DNA of 64,000 nucleotides from an uncultured Dehalococcoidales bacterium (GTDB lineage Bacteria; Chloroflexota; Dehalococcoidia; GIF9; UBA5629), in assembly GCA_964548415.1 (NCBI GenBank), contig CAZJQG010000009.1:2854-66853 (forward strand). The letters run 5' to 3'. The notes beneath the pieces are model-generated. The model was not told the DNA's origin and searched no databases. It saw only the letters and a list, made by a program, of their open reading frames with translations. This document shows, piece after piece, positions 16,907 through 50,966 of this stretch. The position numbers and the translations under genes are program-made. The stretch's first letter is position 1. Each line of letters begins with the position of its first letter.

Positions 16907-17020
16907 AGTCTCCTCGTGCAGTTTATTGTAGCATTGGACGGGAAAAGTAGACAAAAACTCTTTAAAATCTTATCATATGCGTAGCTTTAACAGGCTCATT
17001 GTGATAGAATAAGCGAGAAC

Positions 17021-17890: not shown

Positions 17891-17938
17891 GTTAGGCCAC
17901 TAGAAAATATATAATTCTGCACTTTCTGGAGTAAAGAT

Positions 17939-18214: not shown

Positions 18215-18231
18215 AACTTAAGGTATAACGC

Positions 18232-19320: not shown

Positions 19321-19818
19321 TTAACTCTTATGGGCCTTGATATAACCTTTATCCAGCAGGTCTGCTAGACCCTCGATATCATTGATGGCAAACTGTCTGG
19401 CAGATGTTTCCACCGGCTCGTCTGTGGCTACGGCAATAAGGTTGTCCAGATCATCTAACAGTGGGCCGGCCGTACGCTGGTGCACCTGCACCTTGGGTTC
19501 CTGGCTCTGCTTGAAACCTTCCGTTAGTATAATGTCGTAACCGGTACCCAGTAACCGAGCTATGTCATTAAGGCCCGGCTGGCTGGAAAGCTTTTCGATC
19601 AATACCAGCTGGTCTGGAGAAATGACGACAGTGGCGCTGCTGCCAGCTTCAATATGGCGCCAACTGTCTTTGCCGGTCTTATCGAAGTCTAAGTGATGCG
19701 CTGAATGCTTGATCGTGGCCACTTTGTAGCCGCGTGATTTTAGTTCCGATATCAGCTTTTCTATTAGTGTCGTCTTCCCTGATTTAGGTTTACCTACAAT
19801 TGAGATTATTGGCGGCAT
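19321..19818 (-). CDS. mobB: Molybdopterin-guanine dinucleotide biosynthesis protein B
   Basis: GKPKSGKTT, VATIKH, GKDSWRH, DIILTEGFK. Confidence 0.93.
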   Translation of the reverse strand: MPPIISIVGKPKSGKTTLIEKLISELKSRGYKVATIKHSAHHLDFDKTGKDSWRHIEAGSSATVVISPDQLVLIEKLSSQPGLNDIARLLGTGYDIILTEGFKQSQEPKVQVHQRTAGPLLDDLDNLIAVATDEPVETSARQFAINDIEGLADLLDKGYIKAHKS

Positions 19819-19851
19819 GTTATCAATGTGGAAGTTAATGGAAGATACTTT

Positions 19852-20301
19852 TCAACATTTGCGGTAGGCTTTTTTCCATGGTTCTTTTCTAATAGCCATG
19901 TAGTCGAGTGTGGCAGCTTTGACCGTATTGGCGGCTAGCAGGGCGCAGTGCTTATTAGCTTCTGGCAGTCCATCCAGAGCCTCTACGATATCGTTCTGAC
20001 TGATAGTCAGAGCCCGGGAGACATCTTTACCTTTGATCAACTCGGAGGCCATGCTGCCGCAGGCGACCGTGGTGCTGCAGCCGTTCGTCCAAAAAGAGGC
20101 ATTGGTTATCTTGCCGTCCGTGGCTTTAAGCCGTATTTCCATGATTTCGCCGCAGCCACTGGTAGCAGAACCGAAACCGTCCGGAGTTGTGATCTGTTCG
20201 AGATTACGCGGATTCATGGCATGGTCGATAACCGTCTCCGAATAGATTTTCTTCATGGTTTCCAGTATTTCTTTTTCCAGTTCGTCGAATTTATCAGGCA
20301 T
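19852..20301 (-). CDS. NifU/IscU-like Fe-S scaffold protein
   Basis: DHAMNPRN, SGCGE, NGC..TVACGS, GLP..KHCA. Confidence 0.9.
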   Translation of the reverse strand: MPDKFDELEKEILETMKKIYSETVIDHAMNPRNLEQITTPDGFGSATSGCGEIMEIRLKATDGKITNASFWTNGCSTTVACGSMASELIKGKDVSRALTISQNDIVEALDGLPEANKHCALLAANTVKAATLDYMAIRKEPWKKAYRKC

Positions 20302-20313
20302 GTCCGGTCTCCG

Positions 20314-21327
20314 CTACGATTTTCTAGCCCTTTCCGGCAGCGCCTTAATAAAGTTGCGGCTCAGGGTATCGAGAATTTCAGAACTATAGCGCTCGATGTT
20401 CCCCTCGTCGCAGAGTGTGGAGAGTTTGGGGTCGATGGGTATCTCAGCCAGAATTGGAGCACCGGTTATCTCCGACATTTCCTGGCTGCGGCTTTTGCCG
20501 AAGAGCTCCAGCTTCTTCTTACTGCCGGGCGGTACGAAATAGCTCATGTTTTCCACGATTCCAAGAATTGGGATGTCCAGCTGCCGCGCCATTCTGACGG
20601 CCTTCTTAACCACCATTGCTGCCAGTTCTTGCGGGCTGAAAACGATTACGGTGCCGGATACGGGGACGGTCTGTAAAACGGTCAGCGGTGCATCGGCGGT
20701 TCCCGGTGGCAGGTCAACTACCAGATAATCGAGCTTGCCCCAGAGAACTTCTTCCCAGAATTGCTGGATTACCCGGCTAATGATAGGACCGCGCCAGATA
20801 ACAGCATCGTCTTCATGTTCCAGTAGCAGATTGATTGACATAACGCTGATGCCTAGTTTGGACAATACCGGTAAAATACCTGATTCACTGCTTCGCGGTC
20901 GGGTGCCACCTAGACCGAACATCTTGGGTATGCTGGGGCCGGTGATATCGGCATCGAGTATGCCGACCTCTTTACCGGCACGGGTGAGAGCAATACTGAG
21001 CAACGCTGAAAGCAGGGATTTTCCGACGCCTCCCTTACCGCTCATAACGGCAATTACATAGCCGACCTCGTTGATCTCTTTGGGCATCGCTTCAACAAAG
21101 TCTATGGTTACCTGGCCGACGCCCTCCAGTTGCCCTACAGCAGCACTGACTTTGGTCTTGAGCCAATCCTGAGAAGCGGTGTCCAGAGCTGTCGAAGCCA
21201 GGATAATATTTACTCTATTATCTGAGACCTTAATTTCGCGGATTAAATTCAGTTTGACCGGGCTGCGCATAGCACCCGGGACCAATATATCTTCCAGGCT
21301 TCCTATTATCTGTTGTTCAGTGGCCAT
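20314..21327 (-). CDS. mrp: Mrp/ApbC/NBP35 Fe-S carrier ATPase with N-terminal DUF59-like domain
   Basis: SGKGGVGKS, DADITGPSIP, WRGP, DLPPGTAD, GIVENMS. Confidence 0.93.
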   Translation of the reverse strand: MATEQQIIGSLEDILVPGAMRSPVKLNLIREIKVSDNRVNIILASTALDTASQDWLKTKVSAAVGQLEGVGQVTIDFVEAMPKEINEVGYVIAVMSGKGGVGKSLLSALLSIALTRAGKEVGILDADITGPSIPKMFGLGGTRPRSSESGILPVLSKLGISVMSINLLLEHEDDAVIWRGPIISRVIQQFWEEVLWGKLDYLVVDLPPGTADAPLTVLQTVPVSGTVIVFSPQELAAMVVKKAVRMARQLDIPILGIVENMSYFVPPGSKKKLELFGKSRSQEMSEITGAPILAEIPIDPKLSTLCDEGNIERYSSEILDTLSRNFIKALPERARKS

Positions 21328-21451: not shown

Positions 21452-22903
21452 TTATCTGGTTATCTCTTTGACGACCTCGCCGCCGGCTGAGACAATCTCG
21501 ACCTTGAACGGCATTTGGCCAAGTGCATGGGTCGAGCATGATAGACAAGGGTCGTAGCAGCGGATGGCTACCTCGACGCGGTTTAGTATACCTTCGGTGA
21601 TTTTGTTGTTCTTAATGAACTCCCGAGCCACTGTGTATACCGCCTTATTCATGGCGGCATTGTTATTGCCTGTGGCCACGATAAGGTTTACCCTGGTTAT
21701 TTTGCCGCTATCGTCGACCCAGTAATGATGGAACAGGGTTCCGCGCGGGGCTTCAAGAACACCAACGCCCTGCTCATTGAACTTGTTGGACGAAACCATC
21801 AGGTCGGTGGAACAAATGTCGTGGTCCTCCATGAGTTGCTGAGTTCTTTCCAGCGCGTAAAGCAGCTCTATCAGGCGGGCATAGTGATAATAAAGAGAGC
21901 CTTCGACGGGTGCGCCATTGCCGATCTTCTTGAAATTCTTAAGTTCGGCATTAGCCTTGGGTGTGGATATGCCCTGAGCGACGTTAAGACGGCCAAGTGG
22001 CCCACAACGATACGTACCTTCAGGGTATCCCATCTTCTTATAGAAGGGGAATTTCAAGTACGACCAGTCTTCCACGTGCTCGTTTATGTAATTGAGGTAG
22101 TTGGCAGGCTCGAATTTATCTTCCAGTACTTTACCCTTGGCATCGATTATGGTCAATTTGCCGTCATAAAGTTCCAGATTGTTGTCCTCATCAACCAGCC
22201 CCATATAACCACTTGGAAAGCTGGCGCATGTGCAAATAAAATCATTGTGCTGGTCGTAGTATCCTTTGAGTAGCTTAATGGCGGCTTCAGCGTCTGCTAT
22301 GGATGGAGCAATTTGCTTCAGGAATTTATCTCGGTCGGCAGCCGATAGAGGCGTATTCATACCTCCGGGTACAGCACCGTTCGGGTGTACCTTTTTCCCG
22401 CCAAGAGCCTGGATGATAGTCTGACCAAAGCTACGCAGTAACACGCCTTTAGTTGCCAGTTCCGGGTTCACTGCGATTAATCCGATTACGTTCCTTGTTG
22501 CAGGGTCGGAATCCACGCCCAATAGCAGGTCGGGGCTGGCCAGATGGAAGAAATGGAGGGCGTGAGATTGGATGGTTTGTCCCATGTGCATCAGTTCACG
22601 CAAAAGTTTAGCCGGGCGTGTAAGTTCGACTCCCAATATAGCATCGCCGGCCTTGGCCGCACCAAGGTGATGGCTTACCGGGCAGATACCGCATATTCTG
22701 GGTGTAATTGCTGGCATTTCCCAGAGCACTCTGCCTTCGCAGAACTTCTCGAAACCGCGGAACTGTGTAACGTTGAACCTGGCGTCGATGGCATTACCGG
22801 CTTCATCGAGCTGGATAGTAACCTTTCCATGCCCTTCAATACGGCTGACCGGGTTTATCTCTATTGTCCTTTTTCCGCTTGCCTTTTTAGTCTCAGTTAC
22901 CAT
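21452..22903 (-). CDS. hoxH: [NiFe]-hydrogenase large subunit, group 3d (HoxH/HydL-like)
   Basis: RIEGHG, L1 motif RICGICP, EAPRGTL, L2 motif DPCLSCSTH plus cleavable C-terminal tail. Confidence 0.95.
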
Positions 22904-22930
22904 GGCAACACCTCTCAGATTTAATCATAG

Positions 22931-23467
22931 TTAGTCAAAACGCATCATGTCCGGCGGTAAAACCGGTAGCCTGCCAGCCAGCAACTCTTTCAAGCCATAT
23001 AGTATGGCGCTGGCTTCAGGGGGACAGCCGGGTACGTAGCAATCCACTTTGACTACGTTGTTTACCGGCAGTACCTTGTCCAGAAGTGCCGGCACGCCAG
23101 GTGGGTGGGGTATCTTACCATTTACAGTGCTTTCAGACTCGATGTAGGCACGCCTGAGCACCTCGTCCTTGTCCAGACTACTGCGCATAGCACACACGCC
23201 GCCGAAGCAGGCACAGTCGCCCCAGGCCATAAGAATCTTGCAGTGAGCCCTTAAATCCTTCAATACCTCTTCCTCTTCGGCATTGCCTACCGAGCCTTCC
23301 ACTATACCGACATCCACCTGTGGGAACTCTTTAATATCTGTTATCGGCGTCCTGGTGAACTCGATGGCATTGGCTAAATCAATAATAGCGGCATCGATAT
23401 CTAAAAACGACATATGACAGCCGGAACAGCCTTCCAACCAGACTGAAGCTACTTTTACTTTTGCCAT
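22931..23467 (-). CDS. hoxY: [NiFe]-hydrogenase small subunit, short single-cluster type (HoxY/HydS)
   Basis: [23 protein letters not shown]. 178 aa with no medial or distal cluster motifs. Confidence 0.93.
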
Positions 23468-23486
23468 ATGATTTACTCCTTCCAGA

Positions 23487-25412
23487 TTACTTGAAACGCC
23501 TGGCGATTTCGCTTATCGTTTCCCAGTCTGCTCTTGTACCTTCGGCCGGTTTAACCAAACGTGAGACGGATATTGGAGAACCATCAAGCAGACTGAAATT
23601 TCCGCCAGTCTCAGTCCAGGTTGGCGACGGTAAGACCACGTCGGCTTTTTGAGCCAGGGGTGTTAGATAGCTGGTTTGAACTATCAGGAAATCCAGGCCC
23701 TTCGGCGCTGCCACGTCGTTTGCCCCGGCATAATCATCGGCCAGAAGCACATACAGGGCTTTTACTCCATTCTTGGCTAAATTGGCGGCAATTGATTCTG
23801 TGCCGTTGGAGACCCCTGAATCCCAGGCAAATCGGCTATTGCCCTTCGACTTTAAAACTACGACGTCGGCTTTGCCCTTGTTCTCCGTTCCCGAAACAGC
23901 GGCTAACTTATATAGAGCGGTTATAAGTGCGGCATTCTTCTGCTGCAGTACGCCCCCACCGTAAACGATGATAGTTCGCTTAGCCTTGCCCAGAATCTGG
24001 GTCGCTTCTTTCAGTTCTTTCTGCCCGATGCCAGTTGTAGCATCCTCCTTGACAGGGCCGCCACCGACTGACTTTGCCAGGTTGCTTAAAACTGAAGCTT
24101 CCTGTCCCTTCTTTGGTTTTAACCACATTGCCGCGTACTCGGGCAGCACATTGTGCGCCGGGTCGAGCACAATTAATTTTGCTTTATTCTTTCTTACTGC
24201 CCTCACGATATAAGAGCCGGCTACCGGATGGGTATCGAAAGGATTAGCACCTGCTAACAGTATGCAATCAGCGTTAAAAATCTCTTCCAGCGGGACCTCA
24301 GTCTTCAAATCCGCCTTACTATCGAAAGCCTTAATACCTTTCATAACCGCCCGGTATTCATCGCCGTCGAAAGTGTCGAATAGTTTGCTGCCCAGTGTTC
24401 CGCTGATTAAATCCTTAAAGGCTTTCAAGGCCTGGCTGCTGGCTTGACTTGAAGCCAGCCCGGCTATGCTGCCGGAGCCATTATGAGCCTTGAACTGGCT
24501 GAGCTTCTTGGCCACAGTTTCCAGGGCTTCGTTCACGGAGCAAGGTTCCAGCTTGCCCTGGGCATTTTTAACCATCGCTGTCTTTACCCTGGGGTGATCC
24601 TGGCTCAGAGGGCCGAAGCGTCCCATGTAGCAGAGCAGCCCGTCGTGCTGGGATGGGTCAGGGCTGTCTATCCGAAACAGAATATTGCTTTTTACAAACC
24701 CTTTAACAGCACAGCCAATACCGCATATAGGACAAACGGTAGTGACCTCCTTGGACTCAGGACGCTTACCTTTATATGCGCTCTTCTTGGAGTAAATGGC
24801 GCCAGTGGGACAAGCCTGGAAACAAGCTCCACAAGATATACAGGTTGACTTGCCCAGTGGTTGATTCAGGTCGGCCACCACGACATCTTTCCAGCCTCGA
24901 TAACCGAAGTCGAGTGTATGAACGCCGACTATTTCGTTACAGGTCCTTATACATCTGCCGCACAGTATGCAGCGGTTATGGTCGATAACCAGGTATTCGT
25001 GCTGGGAGTCTATAGGTAAGGCAGGCCAGGCGTAGGGATAGCGGGTACTGTCCATCTGATAGCGGTAACCAAGCTTCTGCAGTTCGCAGTCGCCGCTGGC
25101 TACGCACTGGGCGCAGAGATGGTTGCGCTCTGTGAACATGATTTCCAGTACGAGACGGCGATACTTTTCCAGTTTTTCATTTTGTGTCTGTATGACAAGT
25201 CCGTCTCGTGCCGGATAAGTACAGGCCGGAACGGGCCGTCTTTCTCTCTCGACTTCGACGATGCACATACGGCAGGCTGCCACGTCTGTCAGCCCTTTCA
25301 TATGGCACAGAGTCGGTACATTGATACCGTTAGCTTCACAGACCTCTAGGACGGTATCGCCCTCTTTTCCCTTGACCTGCTTGCCATCGATGGTTAATGT
25401 AATCTCTTTCAT
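23487..25412 (-). CDS. hoxU: NuoG/HoxU/HydA-like Fe-S subunit with cofactor-less molybdopterin-oxidoreductase scaffold
   Basis: [2Fe-2S] PTLC..CRMC..PAC, HxCxxC..C, two [4Fe-4S] (CILCGRC, CISCGAC), CPICGIGC..LC, and C-terminal ADVVLPS..E. Confidence 0.88.
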   Translation of the reverse strand: MKEITLTIDGKQVKGKEGDTVLEVCEANGINVPTLCHMKGLTDVAACRMCIVEVERERRPVPACTYPARDGLVIQTQNEKLEKYRRLVLEIMFTERNHLCAQCVASGDCELQKLGYRYQMDSTRYPYAWPALPIDSQHEYLVIDHNRCILCGRCIRTCNEIVGVHTLDFGYRGWKDVVVADLNQPLGKSTCISCGACFQACPTGAIYSKKSAYKGKRPESKEVTTVCPICGIGCAVKGFVKSNILFRIDSPDPSQHDGLLCYMGRFGPLSQDHPRVKTAMVKNAQGKLEPCSVNEALETVAKKLSQFKAHNGSGSIAGLASSQASSQALKAFKDLISGTLGSKLFDTFDGDEYRAVMKGIKAFDSKADLKTEVPLEEIFNADCILLAGANPFDTHPVAGSYIVRAVRKNKAKLIVLDPAHNVLPEYAAMWLKPKKGQEASVLSNLAKSVGGGPVKEDATTGIGQKELKEATQILGKAKRTIIVYGGGVLQQKNAALITALYKLAAVSGTENKGKADVVVLKSKGNSRFAWDSGVSNGTESIAANLAKNGVKALYVLLADDYAGANDVAAPKGLDFLIVQTSYLTPLAQKADVVLPSPTWTETGGNFSLLDGSPISVSRLVKPAEGTRADWETISEIARRFK

Positions 25413-25414
25413 GC

Positions 25415-28400
25415 TTATTCTCCTACCTCAAGGTCACATCTGAGACAACGGCTACCTTCGATTTGGGCCTCCTTAGGTGTGAATGGTATGGCTACTTCTT
25501 TGTAATTACCCTTTCTCTGGGCGCTACTCAATTCCTTCATTGCCACTCTCGGTCTTTCCTTTAATTCCTCCTCAGTCGGTGGAATTGGCGGGATTTCAAT
25601 GGGTTTGTAATCATTGCGTTCTACCAGTGGCGATAGCGGCTCGCCGCTGAGGAATCTTCTGATAGATGAAGCCGCCCTTTGTCCCTGGGCAATGGCTTCA
25701 ATTACTGTGGACGGTCCGGTGACGGCGTCACCTCCGGCGAATACACCTTCACGAGCCGTGACCAGGGTTCGCTTATCGGCGGCTATGGTGCCGCCCCTGC
25801 CGGTGCTAATATCTGAGCTCAAGAAGGAGGTATCCGGCCGTTGTCCGGTGGCTTCTATGACCATATCGAAATTCATGGTATATTCAGATCCTGATATGGG
25901 ATTTGGAGTCCTCCGGCCGCTGGTGTCGAAGTCTTTAAGCTCCATACGTACCATTTCGAGACCCGTTACGACGCCGTTACTACCCAGTATCTTGGTTGGT
26001 GTGGCGAGACAATTGATTTGAACGCCTTCTTCTTCAGCGGCTGTAATTTCATCCCGCAGTGCCGGCATATCTTGCTGTTCACGGCGATAGAGTATGTGAA
26101 CTTCCTTGGCACCTTCTCTTAATGCCACCCGTGCAGCATCGATGGCAGAGTTGCCACCACCGATGACCGCAACCTTCTGGCCTACTTTTACTTTCTTGCC
26201 CAGGTTTAACTCTCTCAAGAACTCAATGGCATCGTAGACTCCGGCTAACTCTTCACCCGGGATCCTCATCCTGTCGCCCTTGTGAGCTCCGGTTGCGATA
26301 AAAACAGCCTGGAATTTATTATCTTTCAGCAAGCTGTCTATGCTATCTACCCGTGAGTTCAATTTTATTTCAACTCCGAGCTTCTGAATGACCTCGATTT
26401 CGTTCTTCAACAGGTTTTTGGGCAGACGGTACTCGGGTATACCTACGGCCAGCATACCGCCGGCTACAGGTAAGGATTCGAATATAGTCACCTTATAGCC
26501 TTCATGGGCCAGGTCCCAGGCGGCCGCTAGGCCGGCAGGGCCGGCCCCAATGATAGCTACCTTTTCTTTCTTCGGTTCCTTCAATTGCGGCTTGTATTCG
26601 ATGCCGTGTTCAAATGCCCAGTCAGCGGCGAACCTGTGGAGATTTCTTATCGATATAGGTTCTTCGACCTGCTGTCTGCGACATTTCCTCTCACAGGGGT
26701 GTGGGCAAACTCTGCCCACGCTCAATGGTAAAGGTAAGCGTTCCATAATAACGCGGTAAGCCTGCTCGAAATTACCCTGCTTGATGAAAGCGATATAGCC
26801 CGGTGCATCCAAACCTACGGGGCAGGTGCCGGAGCACGGAGCTTTAAATAACGCCGAGCAAACAACAGCAGGACATTTCTTATCTATTATGTGAGCTTCA
26901 TACTCTTCTCTGAAATGACGAAGTGTGGTCAGTACGGGGTTGGGAGCTGTCTGCCCCAGGCCACAGATTGACGCAGAGCAGACCATATCAGCCAATTCTG
27001 AAAGCGTGACCAAATCTTCCATGGTAGCTTTGCCTTCGGTTATTTTGGTCAAGAAGGCAAGCATCTTGGGTATGCCACCGCGGCAGGGGGTACATTTACC
27101 GCAGGACTCGTCCCTGGTAAACTGCAGAAAGAATTTGGCCACATCGACCATACAGCTGTCCTCGTCCATTACCACCAGGCCGCCTGAACCCATAATTGCG
27201 CCTAGGGCGGTCACTGCTTCATAGTCTACCGGTGTATTCAGGTGTTCGATGGGTATAACCCCTCCTGAAGGCCCGCCGATTTGCACCGCCTTGAATTGCT
27301 TTCCTTTAGGTATGCCGCCGCCGATATCGAATACGATTTTTCCGAGCGGGGTACCCAACGGTACTTCGACCAGCCCGGTATTATTAACCTTGCCGACGAG
27401 ACACAGCGTCTTGGTGCCCTTGCTGGTGGCCGTGCCTACGCTACCGAACCAATCAGCACCTTTCCAGATTATCTGGGGTACATTTGACCAGGTTTCGACG
27501 TTGTTCAACGTTGTTGGTTTATCGAAAAGGCCTTTATTTGCCGGGAAAGGAGGGCGCTGGCGGGGGTTACCTCGTTTACCTTCGATTGAAGTTAATAGGG
27601 CGGTCTCTTCACCGCAGACGAAAGCACCGGCACCGGGGAATATATCCAGGTCAAATTCGAAGCCGGTTCCCAGTATGTTATTACCCAGCAGACCATATTC
27701 TCGAGCCTGACTTATTGCATGGTTTAGTGTCTCAATAGCCAGCGGGTATTCGGCACGCACATAGGCGTATCCCTGCCGCACATTGCCGATGGCATAAGCG
27801 CCTATGGCCATACCTTCGATTATCGAGTGCGGGTTACCTTCGAGGACAGCCCGGTTCATGTACGCGCCCGGGTCGCCCTCGTCACCGTTGCAGACAACGA
27901 ATTTTTCATCTCCGACAGCGTTACGAACGAAAGTCCATTTAGTGCCGGTAGGGAACCCTGCTCCTCCACGACCTCTGAGACCTGCCTTCCCTACTTCGGT
28001 TATTACGTCCTCGGGCTTCATTTGGGTTAGCGCCTTAGCCAGGCCCTGGTAGCCATCTCTGGCAATGTACTCGTTGATATTCATCGGATTAAGGTCCTGA
28101 TTGTGCATAACCCGTATTTCCTGTAGCTTGAGCAGCGGGTCGCCGCTGTCCAGCTTCCACTCATCGATTACCTTGCTGCCGACTAAATGTTTCTGAATTA
28201 TCTCGGATACTTTGGCCTCGGTAACATCGGAGTAAGTTGTTGTTCCCATCTTGGGATGTACTATTGTTACCACAGGTTCCCGGTCACAAAGGCCTATGCA
28301 AGCTGCTTTAAGCACGGATACATCCGACAATTTGCCGGTTTTAACGCCTTTCTCAAAGGCTTGAAGGACTTTGTTGGCGCCGGAAGATATGCCGCATGTG

Positions 28401-28504
28401 CCGAGATGAACCTTAACCTGGATCTTCTTCTCTTGTTGGGCCAACCTCCCTTGTACTTTATCTCTGAGCTGTGTCAGTTCTTTCACAGATGCAAGTGGTT
28501 TCAT
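25415..28504 (-). CDS. hoxF: NuoF/HoxF/HydB NADH-FMN subunit fused to a C-terminal GltD/NfnB-like FAD oxidoreductase
   Basis: N-terminal thioredoxin-like Fe-S domain, GLRGRGGAGFP, CNGDEGDPGA, FVCGEETAL, ESCGKCTPC. Then PCSGTCP..CPHPCERKC, IGAGPAGL, GIPEYRLP, GGGNSAID, YRR, GVFAGGD, RCLRC. Confidence 0.93.
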   Translation of the reverse strand: MKPLASVKELTQLRDKVQGRLAQQEKKIQVKVHLGTCGISSGANKVLQAFEKGVKTGKLSDVSVLKAACIGLCDREPVVTIVHPKMGTTTYSDVTEAKVSEIIQKHLVGSKVIDEWKLDSGDPLLKLQEIRVMHNQDLNPMNINEYIARDGYQGLAKALTQMKPEDVITEVGKAGLRGRGGAGFPTGTKWTFVRNAVGDEKFVVCNGDEGDPGAYMNRAVLEGNPHSIIEGMAIGAYAIGNVRQGYAYVRAEYPLAIETLNHAISQAREYGLLGNNILGTGFEFDLDIFPGAGAFVCGEETALLTSIEGKRGNPRQRPPFPANKGLFDKPTTLNNVETWSNVPQIIWKGADWFGSVGTATSKGTKTLCLVGKVNNTGLVEVPLGTPLGKIVFDIGGGIPKGKQFKAVQIGGPSGGVIPIEHLNTPVDYEAVTALGAIMGSGGLVVMDEDSCMVDVAKFFLQFTRDESCGKCTPCRGGIPKMLAFLTKITEGKATMEDLVTLSELADMVCSASICGLGQTAPNPVLTTLRHFREEYEAHIIDKKCPAVVCSALFKAPCSGTCPVGLDAPGYIAFIKQGNFEQAYRVIMERLPLPLSVGRVCPHPCERKCRRQQVEEPISIRNLHRFAADWAFEHGIEYKPQLKEPKKEKVAIIGAGPAGLAAAWDLAHEGYKVTIFESLPVAGGMLAVGIPEYRLPKNLLKNEIEVIQKLGVEIKLNSRVDSIDSLLKDNKFQAVFIATGAHKGDRMRIPGEELAGVYDAIEFLRELNLGKKVKVGQKVAVIGGGNSAIDAARVALREGAKEVHILYRREQQDMPALRDEITAAEEEGVQINCLATPTKILGSNGVVTGLEMVRMELKDFDTSGRRTPNPISGSEYTMNFDMVIEATGQRPDTSFLSSDISTGRGGTIAADKRTLVTAREGVFAGGDAVTGPSTVIEAIAQGQRAASSIRRFLSGEPLSPLVERNDYKPIEIPPIPPTEEELKERPRVAMKELSSAQRKGNYKEVAIPFTPKEAQIEGSRCLRCDLEVGE

Positions 28505-28515
28505 CGTACTTTCTC

Positions 28516-29028
28516 CTATTTATAAGAAGTCAGGATATCTTTTAACTGGCTTGGCTTAACCCTTCCATATACGTTATCTTTTATCGCCATGACCGGAGAT
28601 AGACCGCAGCAGCCGAGACATCTCACCTGTTCCAGTGAAAATTTACCGTCCGGGGTGATTCCGCCGGCCTCGAGTCCGTAGTCCTTCTTCAGCGCTTTTA
28701 GTATCCTTTCAGAACCTTTGACGTAGCAGCTGGTACCATTGCAAACCTGAAGCACATACTTGCCTTTGGGTACCAGTGAGAAAAACGAATAGAAACTGGT
28801 AATTCCGTATAGTTCGCTCAGAGGAATACCCATTTCATTGGAAACAGCCTTTAAGGCTGCCGGAGGCAGGTACCCGACCAGGCCCTGCACTTGCTGAAGT
28901 ACTCGAATGGGGGCGCCGGCCCGGCCATCCATGACTTCAACAATCTTTTTGATTTGCTGAAGCGTTTTGGTGCTCAATTCCGGGCTGGCTTTCGCCTTGG
29001 CGGTTGTTGTTTTAGTTGCTTGTTTCAA
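28516..29028 (-). CDS. hoxE: NuoE/HoxE/HydC [2Fe-2S] subunit
   Basis: GYLP, SFYSFF, CNGTSC, CLGCC. AGGAGG before TTG 29028. Confidence 0.93.
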   Translation of the reverse strand: MKQATKTTTAKAKASPELSTKTLQQIKKIVEVMDGRAGAPIRVLQQVQGLVGYLPPAALKAVSNEMGIPLSELYGITSFYSFFSLVPKGKYVLQVCNGTSCYVKGSERILKALKKDYGLEAGGITPDGKFSLEQVRCLGCCGLSPVMAIKDNVYGRVKPSQLKDILTSYK

Positions 29029-29378
29029 GGTAACCTCCTGGAATGTAGCTCATGTTTAACCCGTACGGAGTCTAACAGTGTACGAAGGTGCATAGCATCG
29101 CTCTTTGGCCCTAATCTATAAGGGACTTTAGTTTTAAGTTGGATGTTCAGAAAATTTACGAAATGTGGCTCGCTTAACCGATGAATTATACAGCTTCCTG
29201 TAAACTTGGCGCAATTATTTTTTAGCTTGAGGCAATTGGAAAATACCAGGCCGTGCACCTCAAGCCGTATTGAACTGGCGACGCAGTTATATTTTTATCA
29301 TTAACTATTTTTATATACAATTAGCTTTCTAAAAACAGGCATTATTGCTTATTTTTGTATAAAAATAGACTAAATTAC

Positions 29379-29407
29379 TTGTGTCACAGGGCTATAAAAG
29401 GTATAAT
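29379..29407 (+). promoter_or_regulatory. Putative sigma70 promoter for the mvh operon
   Basis: TTGTGT-17 nt-TATAAT in the AT-rich divergent region. Confidence 0.5.
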
Positions 29408-29560
29408 TCGGAGGTTTATTTTTTAAATGGCAATCGTCAACTGTAAACAACAAAAATTTTATATAACCGACTGTGAATTCATAGACTTCTATTGTGTTTC
29501 TTTAGCCTACATTTCAACTCATTTGCATAAATCTTATTTTATTAAGTAAGGAGGACTACT

Positions 29561-31354
29561 ATGTGGAAAACTGAAGCGGGCGGAGTGGCGCATGCCGAGA
29601 CGGCCGTTAAACAATGCCTGCCACCCTGTCAGATTAAATGCCCGATAAATGAGGATATACAGAGAACCAACGTGCTTATCTCTCTTCTTCCCGACGACCC
29701 TGAAGCGGCGCGAGAGGGCATACTTCAGATTGGCGACTATCTATACGAAAAGAATCCGTTTTTCAATATCTGTGGCTACATCTGTGGCATATGTGAACTC
29801 GAGTGCAATTATGGTTCAAAGGGTGGAGCCATTAGAAGAAGGCTGCTGAAAAGATTCTTATCGGATGTCTATACGGAACATATAAAAGACCGCGATGAGT
29901 TGGAGGTAAACAGGGACAAAGAGAATGTGGCCGTGATAGGTGGTGGACCGGGTGGCCTTATGTGTGCCTACCACCTTAGTAAAAGAGGATATCGTGTTAC
30001 CATAATAGAAGCCACGGGACGCCTGGGTGGCGCCTTGTGGTTGGTTCCCGATTACAGGTTGCCTAAGGATATTCTGCAAACCACGGTAGAAAATCTGGTC
30101 AGGATTGCCGGTGTGGATGTCAGGTATAACACCCGGCTGGGAACTGGCAAGTTGACGCTGGAGAAGTTGAGGAACGAGGGGTACAAAGCTGTGTTCCTGG
30201 GTACCGGGTTGCCTTATCCCAGGGTCCTGACGTTCGAAGGCAAATTCGTTGATGGCCAGGACTTATCGGGTGTAATGTACGGTCATACCTATCTATATGA
30301 GGTCAGCCACAATAATATCGCTGCTGACTATTTCAAGGGGAAGAAGGTCATTGTAACCGGCGGCGGCAACGTTGCCTTCGATGTAGCCAGGTCGGCACGT
30401 AGACAGGGGGCGGACGTAACGGTCATAGCCCTGGAGCGTGAAGACAAAGACCATAGAGATGGTATTCCCGCGGATGAAGAGGAAATACGCGGAGCCTGGG
30501 AAGAAGGTATCAGGATCGTTTACAGCCGTGGCGTAGACAAAATCATCGGGCAGAACGGTAAATTCAAAGGTATACATTGCCCGTCGTGCGTTAGCGTATT
30601 CGATAAGGAAGGATTCAATCCGAAATTTGATACAACTGATTGCATTGACCTGTCCGGTGATGTGCTTATTATCACCGTAGGCCAGGCTCCCGATAGGCCG
30701 CTCCTGGAAAAGGAAAACCTGCTGGATGAGCGGGGCAGGATTGCCATTGAACACCTCACCCTGCAAAGCCTGAATAAACCATGGGTATTTATAGGTGGTG
30801 ACGTAAGGCGTGTAGGCTTCATGGTAGAAGCTATGGCAGAGGGCTTCGAGGCAGCGGAGTCAATAGATAGGTATTTGAGGGGAGTGGATATGAAGAGCGG
30901 CAGGCGGAAGGACTACGAGGGTTATGAGATTCCGGTACGGAAAGATTATAAGCCGGAACCGGAAGTGCTCTGGATACCGCCTGAAAATCGAATGCACTTC
31001 CAGCTTTTTGAAACAGGACTGATGCTGAGAGAGGCAATAGATGAGGCCAAGCGATGTGTCACCTGCGGCCCCTGCGTTTCTTGTAAAGCCTGCATATCAA
31101 TAGGCTTTCAGAAATCATTGAGCCCGGTAGAAGTGGATGAGACCAGGTGCAGTGGCTGCGGCCATTGCGTTTACGTTTGCAACTACCATTCGGCTCATCT
31201 GGTTAATAACGGCGGCAAGATAACATCTGCGACAGACATGTTCAAGTGCAAATCCTGTGGTATGTGTGTTGTCGCCTGTCCGTCACAGGCCAGAAAAATG
31301 GTCGATGATGATACTGCAGAACGAATAGCTAAGGTCTACGCATCTTTGGCGTAG
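29561..31354 (+). CDS. GltD/NfnB-like FAD Fe-S oxidoreductase with HdrA/HdrL-type C-terminal ferredoxin domain
   Basis: PPCQIKCP..CGYICGICELEC, IGGGPGGL, VPDYRLP, GGGNVAFD, VFIGGD, RCVTCGPCVSC, CSGCGHC..C, CKSCGMC..CP. Confidence 0.88.
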   Translation: MWKTEAGGVAHAETAVKQCLPPCQIKCPINEDIQRTNVLISLLPDDPEAAREGILQIGDYLYEKNPFFNICGYICGICELECNYGSKGGAIRRRLLKRFLSDVYTEHIKDRDELEVNRDKENVAVIGGGPGGLMCAYHLSKRGYRVTIIEATGRLGGALWLVPDYRLPKDILQTTVENLVRIAGVDVRYNTRLGTGKLTLEKLRNEGYKAVFLGTGLPYPRVLTFEGKFVDGQDLSGVMYGHTYLYEVSHNNIAADYFKGKKVIVTGGGNVAFDVARSARRQGADVTVIALEREDKDHRDGIPADEEEIRGAWEEGIRIVYSRGVDKIIGQNGKFKGIHCPSCVSVFDKEGFNPKFDTTDCIDLSGDVLIITVGQAPDRPLLEKENLLDERGRIAIEHLTLQSLNKPWVFIGGDVRRVGFMVEAMAEGFEAAESIDRYLRGVDMKSGRRKDYEGYEIPVRKDYKPEPEVLWIPPENRMHFQLFETGLMLREAIDEAKRCVTCGPCVSCKACISIGFQKSLSPVEVDETRCSGCGHCVYVCNYHSAHLVNNGGKITSATDMFKCKSCGMCVVACPSQARKMVDDDTAERIAKVYASLA

Positions 31355-31387
31355 CTGCTGATGTAAACATTTTGTAGGAGGACGACA

Positions 31388-31837
31388 TTGAGCGAGAACA
31401 AACCGAAAATTGTGTGTTTTTCCTGTAAGTTTGGATGGGGCTATCTGACAGATGAGGCCACACTGTCCAAGCAAATAGAAAATTGGATACCAATTATTTG
31501 CACGGGTAAAATCGATACTACGGATATCATGAATGCCTTCGACCAGGGTGCCGATGGTGTTTTAATTCTTGGATGCCCGGAAGGCGATTGCCATTACCAG
31601 GACGGCAACTATGAAGCTAAGAAGCGAGTACACCTACTCAGCAGGCTTCTGGAGTCCATGGGTGTGGAAAAAGGCAGGATCAGAATAGAGCTTGGCACCG
31701 ATCCTGAGGGCAAGACAATTCCGCAGATAATTAAGGAAATGAGCAAGGACCTTACTAAACTCGGTTCGTCCAGGACCGGTGCGATAGCCGCGAAAAGGCC
31801 TGCCAGAGAGATGATAAAAGCTAAAGGGGGAAAATAG
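31388..31837 (+). CDS. mvhD: Methyl-viologen-reducing hydrogenase delta subunit ([2Fe-2S], MvhD/FlpD)
   Basis: FSC, ICTGKID, GADGVLILGCPEGDCHY..GN. AGGAGG RBS with TTG start. Confidence 0.92.
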   Translation: MSENKPKIVCFSCKFGWGYLTDEATLSKQIENWIPIICTGKIDTTDIMNAFDQGADGVLILGCPEGDCHYQDGNYEAKKRVHLLSRLLESMGVEKGRIRIELGTDPEGKTIPQIIKEMSKDLTKLGSSRTGAIAAKRPAREMIKAKGGK

Positions 31838-31838
31838 G

Positions 31839-32813
31839 ATGGCAAAACCAAAAGTTGCAATCTGCTGGTTGGGAGGTTGCGGTGGCTGTGATGAGGCGGT
31901 CGTCGATATAAACGAAGTGCTGCTAAGCGTCGCCGGTGCTGTGGATTTAGTCCTGTGGCCGGTGGCATTAGATTTCAAATACCACAGCATCGAAGCTATG
32001 AAAGATGGCGAGATAGCTTTGAGTATAATAAACGGCCATATTAGAAATTCTGAACAAGAGGAAGTCGCCGAATTGCTGAGAAAGAAATCTCAGATAGTGC
32101 TGGCTTTCGGTGCCTGTGCCTGTTTCGGTGGGACACCCGGGCTGGCGAATTTGACCACAAAAGAAGACATTTTTGATTGGGTATATAAGAATGCACCCAC
32201 AGTCATTAATCCCAAAGGCAATGTGCCGAAGACACATAGTCGGATTAATGGCAAGGATTTAACGCTGCCTGAGTTTTACGGGCAAGTTCAGGCGCTGAAG
32301 GATGTCATAGATGTCGATTATTACCTGCCCGGATGTCCGCCACCTCCTCACCTCATCATAGCTGCGATAAGCGCTGTGATCGAGAACAAGCTGCCACCTA
32401 AAGGTTCGACACTGGCGCCACACAGATCTCTATGTGATAGTTGCACGAGAAACAAGACTAAACCGGAACGGATGGCCATAACAGAAATTAAGCGGATTCA
32501 TGAAGTAGAGGCGAATCCGGACACCTGCTTTCTGGCACAGGGGATACTTTGTTTGGGACCGGCTACCCGGGATGGTTGCGGCGAGGCCTGCATGAATATC
32601 AACATCCCCTGTCGAGGATGCTTTGGTCCCGTGGAGGGAGTAGTTGATTCAGGCGCTAAGTACATTTCGGCGCTGGCATCTATATTGGATGTTCAGACCG
32701 ATGCCGATATGAACCGATTGACTGACCAGATCAAGGATCTAGCGGGGTACCTGTACCGGTTCTCGCTGCCGACTTCAATATTAAAGAAAAAAAGAGTTAA
32801 AGAATTAGCCTAA
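31839..32813 (+). CDS. mvhG: Group 3c [NiFe]-hydrogenase small subunit
   Basis: GCGGC, FGACA..GG, LPGCPP, LCDSC, CFLAQGILCLGPATR..C..C..PCRGCFG. Confidence 0.93.
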   Translation: MAKPKVAICWLGGCGGCDEAVVDINEVLLSVAGAVDLVLWPVALDFKYHSIEAMKDGEIALSIINGHIRNSEQEEVAELLRKKSQIVLAFGACACFGGTPGLANLTTKEDIFDWVYKNAPTVINPKGNVPKTHSRINGKDLTLPEFYGQVQALKDVIDVDYYLPGCPPPPHLIIAAISAVIENKLPPKGSTLAPHRSLCDSCTRNKTKPERMAITEIKRIHEVEANPDTCFLAQGILCLGPATRDGCGEACMNINIPCRGCFGPVEGVVDSGAKYISALASILDVQTDADMNRLTDQIKDLAGYLYRFSLPTSILKKKRVKELA

Positions 32814-32827
32814 GAAAGAGGTGCAAT

Positions 32828-34291
32828 GTGACCGAAAAGATAACCATCAATCCGATAACCAGACTTGAGGGACACGGAAAAATCGAGATTTTCCTGGATG
32901 ATAAGGGCAACGTGGACGATGCCTACTGGCAGGTAGTCGAACTGAGAGGGTTTGAGAGGTTTTGCCTGGGCAGGCCTGTTGAGGAACTGCCGCGAATCAT
33001 GCCCAATATATGTGGTGTTTGCCCCACACCTCACAACATGGCTTCGGTTAAAGCCCTGGATGACCTTTACGGCGTTGAGCCGACGCCTACTGCGAAGCTC
33101 ATTCGCAATCTCCATTACAACGCATTTATGGTGGAAGACCATTTGCTTCATTTCTTCATTCTGTCAGCGCCGGACTTTGTGCTCGGACCGGATGCCAATC
33201 CGGCAGAGCGGAATATCCTGGGTGTGGTAAACAAAGTGGGCCTGGAAATCGGCGGCAAAGTCATTGAAACCAGGAAAAGATGCCGCGAGATAATTCGATA
33301 TATCGGCAGTAAACCGCCTCATCCCGAAGGTGGACTGCCGGGTGGAGTTTCCAGGGGAGTTACCGAGGAAGACCGCAAATGGATGATTGATTCGGCCGAC
33401 TTCACAGTTGAATTTTGCCAGTTCGCACTCGAATTGTTTAAACAGACCGTTCTGGATAATAAGACGTATCTAAATCTAGTGTTAAACGACGCTTATAAGT
33501 TAAACACGTATTACATGGGCATGGTTGACGAAAGCAAAAGGGTGAACTTTTATGAAGGGAAATTGCGGGTAGTCGATCCCAAAGGAGTGGAATTTGCTCT
33601 GTTCGATTGTCATGACTATGCCAATCACGTGGGCGAATGGGTCGAACCGTGGACCTATATCAGGTTGACTCATCTAAGGAAAATAGGATGGAACGGCCTG
33701 AACGATGATGCCGGGACGTCACTTTACCGCGTTGGACCGCTGGCACGGTTAAATGCCGCGGATAGCATGTATACGCCTCTGGCTCAAAAGGAATACGAGG
33801 CGATGTTTGATATTCTCGGGGGCAAACCCAGCCACCATACTCTAGCCTATCACTGGGCAAGGCTGATCGAAGCCCTTCAGGCCGCGGAACACATGCAGCG
33901 GATTGTAAACGACCCGTTATTGACCAGCAAAGATATACGAAACATGAATCTCAAGTTGGGCAAGGTGGGTATCGGCGCAGTAGAAGCTGCGCGCGGAACC
34001 TTAATTCATCACTACGAGTCAGACGATGAGGGCAGAGCTACCAAAGTAAATCTTATCGTGGCCACGCAGCATAATGCGGCCCCTATATGTATGTCCGTCA
34101 AGAAGGCAGCCATGGAATTTGTGAAAGGACCTGAGGTTAAAGAAGGCCTGCTTAATATGGTGGAGATGGCTTTCCGGGCTTATGATCCGTGCCTGGGCTG
34201 CGCGACTCATGCGTTGCCGGGTAAAATGCCCTTGACGATCAACATAAGAGAGCCCAACGGCAACCTGATACGTACTGTCGAGAGACGCTAG
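32828..34291 (+). CDS. mvhA: Group 3c [NiFe]-hydrogenase large subunit
   Basis: TRLEGHG, ICGVCP, EAARGTLIHHY, EMAFRAYDPCLGCATH plus tail. Confidence 0.95.
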   Translation: MTEKITINPITRLEGHGKIEIFLDDKGNVDDAYWQVVELRGFERFCLGRPVEELPRIMPNICGVCPTPHNMASVKALDDLYGVEPTPTAKLIRNLHYNAFMVEDHLLHFFILSAPDFVLGPDANPAERNILGVVNKVGLEIGGKVIETRKRCREIIRYIGSKPPHPEGGLPGGVSRGVTEEDRKWMIDSADFTVEFCQFALELFKQTVLDNKTYLNLVLNDAYKLNTYYMGMVDESKRVNFYEGKLRVVDPKGVEFALFDCHDYANHVGEWVEPWTYIRLTHLRKIGWNGLNDDAGTSLYRVGPLARLNAADSMYTPLAQKEYEAMFDILGGKPSHHTLAYHWARLIEALQAAEHMQRIVNDPLLTSKDIRNMNLKLGKVGIGAVEAARGTLIHHYESDDEGRATKVNLIVATQHNAAPICMSVKKAAMEFVKGPEVKEGLLNMVEMAFRAYDPCLGCATHALPGKMPLTINIREPNGNLIRTVERR

Positions 34292-34487: not shown

Positions 34488-35921
34488 ATGAATAGCTCGC
34501 AAGTGCAAGAGAAAACGACGGACTACTCTCCTGAAGAGAGAGCACTGATACTGCGGCTTAGGGTATACGTCAATCTTCGATGGCTGGCCGTCGTCGCCAT
34601 CTTTGCGGCGGTATGGGTCGCATCAACGGTATTCCATATTAGTTTTCCAACTCTTCCCGTTTATATTATTTGTGTTGCAATCATTATATATAATGCTATC
34701 CTGTTCTACCTTACGCTCCGGCTAGATAAGGAAAAACCGGAGTCTGTCATCCGGAAAGCTGAGCTATACGGCAATGTGCAGGTTTTTCTTGACCTGGTGA
34801 TTCTTACCCTGCTTCTACACTTTACCGGTGGAGTAGAAAATCCTTTCATATTTCTTTACATAATTCATATAAATGCAGCTGCTATATTTCTATCGAGACG
34901 AAGGGTTTATGAACTGACAACACTGGCCATGGCTATTTTGGCGATTATGGTTTTTTTAGAATACTTTGGTGTGATACCTCATGTAAATCTCGCGGGATTC
35001 GTGTCTCCGAACCGGTACAATGAATTAAGTTATGTCATTCCTGTTTTGGTTGCCTTGGCCACCCTGGCCTACGGTACGATTTATGTGACAACCGCTATAA
35101 ATGGTGAGTTGAGGAGGCGGCAACGTGAAGTTATGGTGTTGAAAGACCAGCTACTGGAGCAGAGGGCGAAGGAGCTGGAGCAGATATCGGGAGAGGTGCT
35201 TAAGCTGGTGGAGGAGAGACGGAGTTTCGTGCGATTTCTCAGTGTTGTGGCACACGACCTGCAGTCGCCCTTGGTGGCAACTCAAAGCTTGCTATCTTAT
35301 ATTGTTGATGGGTATACTGGGCAGATAACCGACGGGCAAAAGGACCTGATGCAGCGAGGCATCAGAAGAATCGATGCGCTGCTGACATTGATTACCGACC
35401 TGCTTGATATACCCCGGATAGAGGCGGGACAGCTAAGTCGCGAAATGAGGGAAATCCCGTTAAACGACGCAGTCAAGCAGGCAACGGATGGTCTGGATAA
35501 TGTAGCCAGACAGAAAGGGCTGACGCTTCAAGTAGAACTGCCGGAGCGTTCGCCTATAGTATACGGTTCAAACCGCAGGCTGGTACAGGTGGTGACTAAT
35601 CTGGCGAGCAATGCTATTAACTATACACGAGAAGGTACGGTATTAGTGAAAGCCGCAGACGGTAAAGACGAGGTAAAAGTTGAAGTAATAGATACTGGAA
35701 TCGGTATACCACCCGAGGAACTACCCCGGCTATTTAACGACTTCTTCCGCGGTAGCAACGTGGGAGCCAAAGGGACCGGATTGGGGCTATCGATATCTAA
35801 GAGGATAATCGAAGCTCACGGTGGTAAGATTTGGGCGGAGAGCCCGGCTCCTGAAACCGGGCAGGGAAGCAAGTTTACATTTACTTTGCCGAAAAATAGG
35901 TCTGCAGTACCTGATAAATAG
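34488..35921 (+). CDS. Multi-TM sensor histidine kinase
   Basis: About six N-terminal TM helices (LRW.., HFTGGVENPF), H-box VAHDLQSPL, NLASNA, DTGIGI, GTGLGL. Confidence 0.93.
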   Translation: MNSSQVQEKTTDYSPEERALILRLRVYVNLRWLAVVAIFAAVWVASTVFHISFPTLPVYIICVAIIIYNAILFYLTLRLDKEKPESVIRKAELYGNVQVFLDLVILTLLLHFTGGVENPFIFLYIIHINAAAIFLSRRRVYELTTLAMAILAIMVFLEYFGVIPHVNLAGFVSPNRYNELSYVIPVLVALATLAYGTIYVTTAINGELRRRQREVMVLKDQLLEQRAKELEQISGEVLKLVEERRSFVRFLSVVAHDLQSPLVATQSLLSYIVDGYTGQITDGQKDLMQRGIRRIDALLTLITDLLDIPRIEAGQLSREMREIPLNDAVKQATDGLDNVARQKGLTLQVELPERSPIVYGSNRRLVQVVTNLASNAINYTREGTVLVKAADGKDEVKVEVIDTGIGIPPEELPRLFNDFFRGSNVGAKGTGLGLSISKRIIEAHGGKIWAESPAPETGQGSKFTFTLPKNRSAVPDK

Positions 35922-35970: not shown

Positions 35971-36348
35971 ATGAATAAGAGACCGAAAATCTTGCTTGTC
36001 GACGATGATGTCGACCTGGTAACGGTAATGAGGGGTGCTCTGGAAAGTAAAGCGTATGAGGTAATCGTAGCCTATAACGGTAAAGAGGGGCTGGAAAAGG
36101 CCAAAAAAGAACAGCCTGATCTGGTAGTCCTCGATATACTGATGCCGGTGGCCGACGGTTTTACCTTCGCGGACCAGTTTCGCAAAGACCCGACTTTGGC
36201 AAAGACACCGGTGTTGGCGCTGACCAGCTTCTCAGAATCCTTGGGCCAGCCATTTGCCTTCGACGTCTCCGAGTTTATCTCGAAGCCAATCAAGCCAAGG
36301 GACCTGGTGGCCAAGGTCGAGACGTTTCTGAAAAAAGCCGGCAAATAA
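35971..36348 (+). CDS. Single-domain response regulator (receiver only)
   Basis: LVDDD, VLDILMP, ALT, ISKP. No output domain. Confidence 0.92.
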   Translation: MNKRPKILLVDDDVDLVTVMRGALESKAYEVIVAYNGKEGLEKAKKEQPDLVVLDILMPVADGFTFADQFRKDPTLAKTPVLALTSFSESLGQPFAFDVSEFISKPIKPRDLVAKVETFLKKAGK

Positions 36349-49719: not shown

Positions 49720-49725
49720 ATTAAA

Positions 49726-50940: not shown

Positions 50941-50966
50941 CTAGCGACATTAGGAGGGTAATATCT

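Follow-up and report, generated by a model that had tools for sequence, protein, structure and literature searches.

Why would a bacterium keep two [NiFe] hydrogenases back to back on its chromosome, and to which electron carriers would each of them be wired? The question is raised by a locus of an uncultured Dehalococcoidales bacterium (contig CAZJQG010000009.1; we call the whole 64,000-nucleotide stretch analysed the window), in which nine genes related to hydrogenases are identified by open reading frames, Pfam and NCBIfam; they form two divergent operons, the left one on the minus strand (21452-29028) and the right one on the plus strand (29561-34291). An original prediction, made from the sequence before any database search, had placed and named these genes, and all nine are found where it put them. 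We read the locus as two soluble [NiFe] hydrogenases in which known modules are joined in two uncharacterised combinations, and which are kept as a pair within one order of Dehalococcoidia; the left enzyme would use nicotinamide adenine dinucleotide (NAD(H)) and its phosphate (NADP(H)), and the right enzyme NAD(H). We put the probability of this reading at about 0.6. The genes and the spacer between them are as follows (database support in brackets; PDB, Protein Data Bank).

28516-29028, minus strand: NuoE/HoxE/HydC-like [2Fe-2S] subunit (BfuC), 170 aa, TTG start (PF01257)
25415-28504, minus strand: fusion of a NuoF-like part and a GltD/NfnL-type module, 1029 aa (Pfam, PDB)
23487-25412, minus strand: HydA/BfuA-like iron-sulfur (Fe-S) subunit, 641 aa (Pfam, NCBIfam, 7t2r_A)
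22931-23467, minus strand: [NiFe] small subunit of the short HoxY/HydS type, 178 aa (PF01058, E 1.8e-30)
21452-22903, minus strand: [NiFe] large subunit, HydL/HoxH-like, 483 aa (PF00374, PDB 7t2r_D)
29029-29560, no strand: AT-rich divergent spacer, 532 bp (G+C 0.354)
29561-31354, plus strand: GltD/NfnL/DsrL-like iron-sulfur flavoprotein, 597 aa (Pfam, NCBIfam, PDB)
31388-31837, plus strand: MvhD-like [2Fe-2S] subunit, 149 aa (PF02662, E 1.6e-30)
31839-32813, plus strand: MvhG-like long small subunit, 324 aa (PF01058)
32828-34291, plus strand: MvhA-like [NiFe] large subunit, 487 aa, GTG start (PF00374)

The left operon is closest to a five-subunit enzyme of known structure. All three of its products that were searched against solved structures (subunits A and B and the large subunit) find their best match in the electron-bifurcating NiFe-HydABCSL of Acetomicrobium mobile (PDB 7t2r/7t30; Feng et al. 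2022), which, as far as the available text of PMC9304861 describes it, likewise has five subunits with the same roles; for the NuoE-like and small subunits, the identification comes from Pfam and NCBIfam only. The NuoE-like protein matches PF01257 over positions 1-145 of 145 (E 2.6e-47) and scores slightly under the cut-offs of the HoxE and NuoE NCBIfam models, and its gene lies upstream of the fusion gene in 12/12 related loci mapped. Residues ~1-553 of the fusion form a NuoF-like part with the domain for flavin mononucleotide (FMN) and NAD(H) and the B1 [4Fe-4S] domain (full-length matches to PF01512 and PF10589); the best PDB match, 7t2r_B, extends over residues 30-556 (E 6e-200) and reaches 670 bits, where NuoF chains of complex I reach 357-367. 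The large subunit, which carries a C-terminal extension past its last metal-binding motif, prefers 7t2r_D (604 bits) to 5xf9_D of the soluble hydrogenase (SH) that reduces NAD (457 bits) and to MvhA (411 bits). Across related operons the small subunit is 64-90% identical. The five-gene operon is kept in seven of eight loci of clade a and in three further loci, and the fusion protein, at its length of ~1029 aa, is found in more than 120 protein clusters at 70% identity or above, the named ones coming from metagenome-assembled genomes of Dehalococcoidia or Chloroflexi.

In the original prediction this operon was a group 3d hydrogenase with a hoxU gene. The HoxU label does not hold, as the subunit in question is 641 aa long, compared with ~240 aa for HoxU, and the HoxU model covers only its residues 1-222. 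Pfam and NCBIfam place in it 2Fe-2S, His-ligated and 4Fe-4S motifs and a NuoG-type Fe-S region, followed by a molybdopterin-like scaffold; it aligns with 7t2r_A (E 5.9e-124) collinearly over residues 1-451 and 459-628, with the Cys and His cluster motifs in register, and is therefore of the HydA/BfuA type. As for the group 3d label, the left operon shares with HoxEFUYH (PDB 5xf9) a diaphorase of the NuoE/NuoF type together with a large subunit and a small subunit that is short, but HoxU of that enzyme is short (5xf9_B, 242 aa) and its HoxF has no GltD module, so that a variant of the HydABCSL/Bfu family describes the operon better than a textbook Hox enzyme does.

What makes it a variant is an exchange at the C-terminus of subunit B. 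In short-range junction searches, all BfuB-type chains stop aligning at fusion residues 553-557, a conserved His/Cys hinge that the fusion shares with NiFe-HydABCSL, where it precedes the C-terminal domain. Immediately past this hinge, at about residue 554, the N-terminal two-cluster domain of a GltD module begins. According to the available sections of PMC11829005, the post-hinge domain of Bfu subunit B holds clusters B3 and B4 and is the low-potential exit through which electrons reach ferredoxin. The left subunit B lacks this C-terminal domain with its two [4Fe-4S] clusters and has instead a GltD/NfnL module of ~475 aa (residues ~554-1029), predicted to hold two [4Fe-4S] clusters, flavin adenine dinucleotide (FAD) and an NADP(H) site. 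Since a defining feature of the Bfu family is missing, the left enzyme is not a plain member of it; NiFe-HydABCSL of A. mobile, as reported in the portion of PMC9304861 at hand, uses NAD and ferredoxin.

The new module itself has close relatives. Over residues 554-1024 it is most similar to the NfnA/StnA modules of Bfu transhydrogenases (9bov_A, 8oh5_C and 9n5u_A; 370-422 bits), and it also matches NfnL of NfnSL. Open reading frames and Pfam show no gene in either operon for the small NfnS subunit, with its [2Fe-2S] cluster, FAD and NAD site, that is encoded beside NfnL in NfnSL. As described in the available part of PMC11829005, NfnABC/StnABC (PDB 9n5u, 9bov, 8oh5) resemble the left enzyme in joining a GltD-type FAD-NADP(H) module to a core of the NuoE/NuoF type, but their module resides in subunit A and sends electrons towards FMN, their subunit B retains the ferredoxin domain, and no hydrogenase is part of them. 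In the left enzyme, by contrast, the GltD module sits on subunit B in place of the ferredoxin domain, and HydS and HydL are present. The Bfu survey (PMC9304861), in the text available, places Nfn modules in subunit A only and NiFe-Bfu enzymes in Synergistetes and Halorhabdus.

A few further features of the fusions and their neighbours deserve mention in their own right. In the clade nearest the window, His replaces the first of the four Cys of the fusion's N-terminal thioredoxin-like domain (window 28330-28420; PF01257, residues 25-105), and more distant fusions retain all four; the site, which in Bfu subunit B is B5 with four metal ligands, may hold a cluster or zinc. The available text of PMC11829005 describes a lysine of NfnA/StnA that ligates the FAD-proximal [4Fe-4S] cluster; the aligned residue of the fusion (~622) is His in the window and in one same-genus genome (L001), Lys in ten others and Arg in one. 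Two more NuoF::GltD fusions, ~51-52% identical to the window's, are encoded in the same genome (C3:37711-40725 and C29:11570-14605). In relatives this second clade of fusions (L013-L016) has NuoE-like and NuoG-like gene neighbours and no hydrogenase, and looks like a transhydrogenase of the Nfn/Stn type whose GltD module is carried by subunit B instead of A. Finally, in other genera a separate short HoxU-like gene that is not in the window comes after the hydrogenase genes (L010:13049-13669, L012:4143-4766 and L029:16003-16632); its product and the N-terminus of the HydA-like subunit share 32-36% identity.

The right operon departs from its models in another way. Its first gene encodes a flavoprotein composed, in order, of an N-terminal two-cluster region, an FAD site, a dinucleotide site, a linker and a C-terminal Cys-rich ferredoxin domain. 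The protein is a distant relative of GltD/NfnL that matches 9n5u_A (E 5.8e-56) and 5jca_L (E 3.7e-53), and between its GltD core and the left module identity is 31%; residues 503-579, with three conserved Cys motifs, resemble the ferredoxin domain of HdrA (5odc_A, E 4.6e-9). Like the left fusion, the flavoprotein is abundant in metagenomes: among 8000 scored candidates, 2102 relatives were found at E<=1e-30. The flavoprotein gene adjoins mvhD, mvhG and mvhA in 8/8 orthologous loci mapped, in two gene orders, and none of these eight right operons contains HdrABC. The four Cys of MvhD are invariant among nine sequences, and the MvhG-like subunit is matched by the VhuG model over residues 3-318 at 204 bits (cut-off 450). 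Paralogues of the same architecture, 35-39% identical, are fused C-terminally to an MvhD (FlpD) domain in 3/3 cases examined, which provides Rosetta-stone support for contact between the flavoprotein and MvhD. These paralogues lie at L032:6391-8508 (minus strand), L033:6065-8203 (plus strand) and L035:5706-7787 (minus strand), and no hydrogenase subunit gene was found in the 13-15 kb around each. Fusions of the flavoprotein to receiver domains had also been considered; the relatives of ~700 aa that were examined proved to be MvhD fusions instead.

With MvhADG-HdrABC and VhuADG-Hdr (group 3c, PDB 5odc) the right operon thus shares MvhD, a long MvhG, MvhA and an HdrA-like cluster domain, but where those have HdrA, it has a flavoprotein of the GltD/NfnL type whose dinucleotide site is of the NAD(H) kind. 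In one published case an Mvh system is linked with a GltD-type NAD(H) module; there, GltD is inserted in a full HdrA and Hdr chemistry is kept, whereas the right enzyme has no HdrA core. The flavoprotein also has the domain order of DsrL, a likeness drawn from the published description of DsrL (available text of PMC7596348) and not from sequence comparison. DsrL, however, works with the sulfite reductase DsrAB, and the conserved neighbours of the right flavoprotein are hydrogenase subunits; Pfam finds no dsr gene in the window, and dsrAB was not searched for in the genome. As judged from sequence, then, neither operon has all the defining features of NiFe-HydABCSL, NfnABC/StnABC, HoxEFUYH, MvhADG-HdrABC or DsrL, and the expectation that neither architecture would correspond to a characterised enzyme is upheld among these closest known systems.

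The nucleotide sites of the two GltD-type modules differ, as had been anticipated from two short motifs, ILYRR on the left and IALER on the right, both of which are present in the translations. The YRR motif of the left module aligns with that of the NADPH enzymes 9bov_A, 8oh5_C, 9n5u_A, 5jca_L and 4ylf_B and is kept in 13/13 fusions. In the right flavoprotein, Leu-Glu takes the place of Arg-Arg in 6/6 sequences (Ala-Leu-Glu, or Cys-Leu-Glu in relatives), and a conserved five-residue insertion follows the YRR-equivalent position. The rule by which such motifs are read is backed by assays in the same protein family: in the DsrL experiments reported in the available text of PMC7596348, a YRR enzyme takes only NADP(H), and non-basic residues at this position, Leu and Glu among them, go with NAD(H). 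The dinucleotide site of the right flavoprotein matches the pattern of the NAD(H)-specific DsrL-1 and would accordingly be of the NAD(H) type.

How electrons might move through the left enzyme can be proposed from this arrangement. HydL/HydS would split H2 and pass electrons along the HydA-like cluster chain to an FMN/[4Fe-4S]/[2Fe-2S] centre of the NuoF/NuoE-like subunits, at which NAD(H) would be bound; a gated low-potential branch would lead into the GltD module and, by way of its two clusters and its FAD, to NADP(H). In this way two H2 would be coupled reversibly to both NAD+ and NADP+, and NADP(H) would stand in for ferredoxin. The potentials are about -280 mV for NAD, -380 mV for NADP and -325 mV for H2 at 100 Pa. 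At ~100 Pa H2 the reaction of 2 H2 with NAD+ and NADP+ would therefore lie near equilibrium, and either direction would be possible. One could go further and see in the left enzyme a ferredoxin-independent bifurcating or confurcating hydrogenase with NADP(H) as its low-potential partner which, together with an NAD(H)-only Mvh-type enzyme, would form a module that sets the NADH and NADPH pools against ambient H2 and is switched by a RegB-like kinase and a lone receiver. We regard this fuller scheme as speculative and rather unlikely in all its parts.

The left enzyme may also not bifurcate at all, electrons reaching FMN (for NAD+) or FAD (for NADP+) independently in a simple dual-cofactor hydrogenase. 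In favour of such an enzyme are the absence of the ferredoxin-reducing domain, by which the low-potential branch is defined in Bfu enzymes, the lack of a ferredoxin gene in the operon and, in the window's clade, an N-terminal 2Fe-2S-type domain of the fusion with only three Cys plus a His. Yet the NuoF/NuoE parts are nearest to the bifurcating HydB, NfnB and StnB and not to the non-bifurcating SH or to complex I, the hinge motif before the mobile domain is conserved, and the GltD module occupies the exact place of the low-potential exit domain. On balance we consider the dual-cofactor enzyme somewhat unlikely, though a little less so than the full scheme above.

For the right enzyme the simplest reading of an NAD(H)-type site is interconversion of H2 and NAD(H), with electrons passing from MvhA through MvhG and MvhD to the FAD of the flavoprotein and on to NAD(H), or in reverse. 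A link of the locus to ferredoxin, which had also been suggested, can only be inferred. One form it might take is bifurcation in the right enzyme, in which electrons from H2, delivered by MvhD, would be split between NAD+ and, at the HdrA-like C-terminal domain, ferredoxin. The three conserved Cys motifs of that domain (5odc_A match given above) are in keeping with such a route, and so are the N-terminal clusters of the NfnL type; in NfnSL, clusters of this type lead to ferredoxin. To bifurcate and also pass a hydride to NAD+, however, a single FAD needs a second flavin or a high-potential acceptor beside it, and the operon encodes neither; and DsrL proteins of the same architecture are, in the available text of PMC7596348, plain NAD(P)H:acceptor oxidoreductases. 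We therefore hold bifurcation on the right to be improbable.

A sparse class-level sample (150 genomes) had suggested a genus-specific linkage, with the divergent pair in the same genus only and with both operons of one further genome (G118) on different contigs, but this was overturned by an order-level sample of 200 genomes. In the latter, 38 genomes carry a flavoprotein at least 65% identical to the window's, and linkage was taken as a left-type fusion within 10 kb, counted among the fusion matches listed. On that definition the operons are linked in at least 25 of the 38 genomes, from two families, so that the linkage is not peculiar to the window's genome; 18 cases are divergent, six tandem and one convergent among the matches listed. 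The divergent cases comprise ten from the window's genus, two from g116, five from g137 and one from g139, the tandem cases five from g112 and one from g137, and the convergent case is from g137 (again among the matches listed). The other 13 genomes have the genes on different or broken contigs, or have no left-type fusion among the matches listed; of all 38 genomes in which this flavoprotein subclade occurs, at least 30 carry a left-type fusion as well. Fifteen linked places were mapped. Both gene starts were seen at 9/12 divergent junctions, the remaining three pieces having too few flavoprotein codons, and mapping bore out the tandem and convergent arrangements. Another subclade of flavoproteins, 50-55% identical and present in 20 genomes with the gene order mvhG-A-flavoprotein-D, is unlinked to the left operon.

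That the linkage survives three arrangements argues for selection, despite the kinship of the genomes, and that relatives keep the pair together suggests that the two hydrogenases probably function as a unit. The main competing explanation is that the adjacency has no mechanistic meaning and that the two enzymes are alternative isoenzymes, for instance for H2 uptake and release or for different H2 pressures, in a hydrogenase island with shared maturation and regulation. Each direction has promoter-like boxes of its own, and promoter-like sequence persists in the tandem form; the left operon stands alone in many genomes, and in G118 the operons are apart; and the kinase and receiver genes go with the right operon. 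An island of this kind sits less easily with linkage maintained through three rearrangements in five genera and two families, and with the co-occurrence of the left-type fusion in at least 30 of 38 genomes of the flavoprotein subclade. We take it for a serious possibility, if short of an even one.

Several observations weigh against our reading of two paired enzymes, beyond the dual-cofactor alternative, which would remove the coupling on the left. The left operon often occurs alone, and the flavoprotein is found in 0/17 g2 and 0/6 g3 genomes. In one genome of the window's own genus (G234), the flavoprotein gene (C16:155261-157027) is a pseudogene with eight in-frame stops next to an intact left fusion. 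The pair is thus no obligatory one, and the genomes, being related, are not independent samples. The window's stretch was detected in seven DNA runs (freshwater and freshwater-sediment metagenomes) and in no RNA run. The right large subunit, 40% identical to the left one, is also not clearly of group 3c: VhuA is its best NCBIfam match at 388 bits, under the cut-off of 800, and against solved structures it scores 386 bits with 7t2r_D, 365 with MvhA, 351 and 343 with Vhu and 314 with SH. Its sequence, about equidistant from solved large subunits of the Bfu type and of Mvh, is thus not decisive for the group 3c assignment of the original prediction; the Mvh label rests on the subunit composition (MvhD, a long MvhG and MvhA).

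The genome also encodes, outside the locus, 18 CCG-domain matches and four further MvhD-domain genes, which make an Hdr-like partner in trans conceivable. The right MvhADG would then serve an Hdr-like complex encoded elsewhere, as can happen in methanogens, where mvh and hdr may be separate, and the adjacent flavoprotein would have some other role. The constant position of the flavoprotein gene beside mvhD in the eight loci, through two gene orders, and the fusion of the two in paralogues speak against it, and we consider a partner in trans very unlikely, the least probable of the alternatives weighed here. Another MvhD-domain gene of the genome, at C3:106049-106417 among CCG-domain (HdrB/D-like) genes, has a single in-frame TGA, which may be a selenocysteine codon or the mark of a broken gene.

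Whether the operons are regulated together was approached through the spacer. The AT-rich region of about 530 bp that had been noted there is borne out, with a length of 532 bp and a G+C content of 0.354 (29000-29499) against ~0.45-0.53 around it. Co-regulation from a shared promoter, which had been read into it, is not borne out by an alignment of 11 divergent junctions, in which conserved promoter-like boxes are separate for each direction: a -10 box at 29185-29190 and a -35 box at 29209-29214 on the minus strand for the left operon, and a -35 box at 29379-29384 and a -10 box at 29402-29407 for the right. In the tandem form, promoter-like sequence still precedes the flavoprotein gene. A block of ~40 nt in the left leader (29088-29131), conserved in 8/11 of the aligned junctions, may be a protein-binding site. 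Rfam gave no match for the leader (best E 0.19, at chance level), RNAalifold found no consensus structure among 11 leaders, the window's leader giving z +0.6 relative to mononucleotide shuffles, and a generic promoter scan returned two sites where 1.9 are expected by chance, neither of them a conserved box. As the boxes escaped the generic scan and the leader has neither an Rfam match nor an RNA fold, we infer the promoters from conservation. A histidine kinase gene and a lone receiver gene directly follow mvhA and might take part in regulation. The kinase resembles the RegB/PrrB-type redox kinases along its whole length, though far under the cut-off (NF033792, 104 bits over 19-467, cut-off 350), and the pair recurs after mvhA in three other genomes (L001, L030 and L031), with 78% identity for the kinase and 85-93% for the receiver.

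Dehalococcoidia rank with the most abundant bacteria in anoxic sediments and aquifers, and what is said of their hydrogen metabolism has been deduced almost wholly from gene names. As the fusion and the flavoprotein are annotated as 'NuoF' and 'glutamate synthase beta subunit-like', both enzymes stay hidden in metabolic reconstructions. If the left enzyme does couple H2 to NADH and NADPH without ferredoxin, it would represent a new type of Bfu reaction and a direct route from H2 to NADPH of biotechnological interest. The right enzyme would offer a second, non-Hdr partner for Mvh-type hydrogenases, and the pairing would be a testable unit for balancing two nicotinamide pools against trace H2 in fermenting or fatty-acid-oxidising cells. 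Two things are new here: that the pairing is conserved, and that a single locus holds contrasting nucleotide sites. In the literature searched we found no description of either architecture or of their pairing, and the view that the system is undescribed holds to that extent; a brief earlier mention is possible in the Supplementary Results of Nobu et al. 2022 (PMC9751293), whose available text has a paper on the GltD NADPH site among its hydrogenase references and points to those results.

The genes around the two operons, identified by Pfam, are listed below.

34488-35921, plus strand: membrane histidine kinase with a PilS-like N-terminus of six transmembrane segments, HisKA and HATPase domains (Pfam)
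35971-36348, plus strand: lone response-regulator receiver without an output domain, 125 aa (PF00072)
39356-40361, plus strand: nickel-insertion proteins hypB (39356-40027) and hypA (40020-40361) (PF02492, PF01155)
20314-21327, minus strand: Mrp/NBP35-type Fe-S carrier ATPase (Pfam)
19852-20301, minus strand: NifU-like scaffold (Pfam)
19321-19818, minus strand: MobB-like protein (Pfam)

The original prediction had kinase, receiver, hypB and hypA following the right operon; this is correct for kinase and receiver, but hypBA lies 3 kb past the receiver, beyond an alpha/beta hydrolase gene and two 3-hydroxyacyl-CoA dehydrogenase genes (Pfam), and is syntenic only in the same-genus genome L001. 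The proposed link to neighbouring beta-oxidation genes fares similarly, in that these are syntenic within the genus but not beyond it. The Mrp/NBP35, NifU-like and MobB-like genes (19321-21327) lie downstream of the left large subunit, and NifU and MobB homologues are again found after the hydrogenase genes in a tandem-form locus (L029). The genome carries two genes for HycI-type endopeptidases, both outside the window. The left operon is bordered by genes for UvrC, a XerC-like recombinase and PCMT (window 15101-18867), as it also is in three further genera of its family (L010, L012 and L029); given this conserved PCMT-XerC-UvrC flank, the left operon occupies a conserved chromosomal place, and the recombinase is no sign of mobility. 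Lastly, a complete riboflavin synthesis operon (ribD, ribE, ribBA and ribH) lies at 47981-51434, 14 kb from the flavoenzyme genes.

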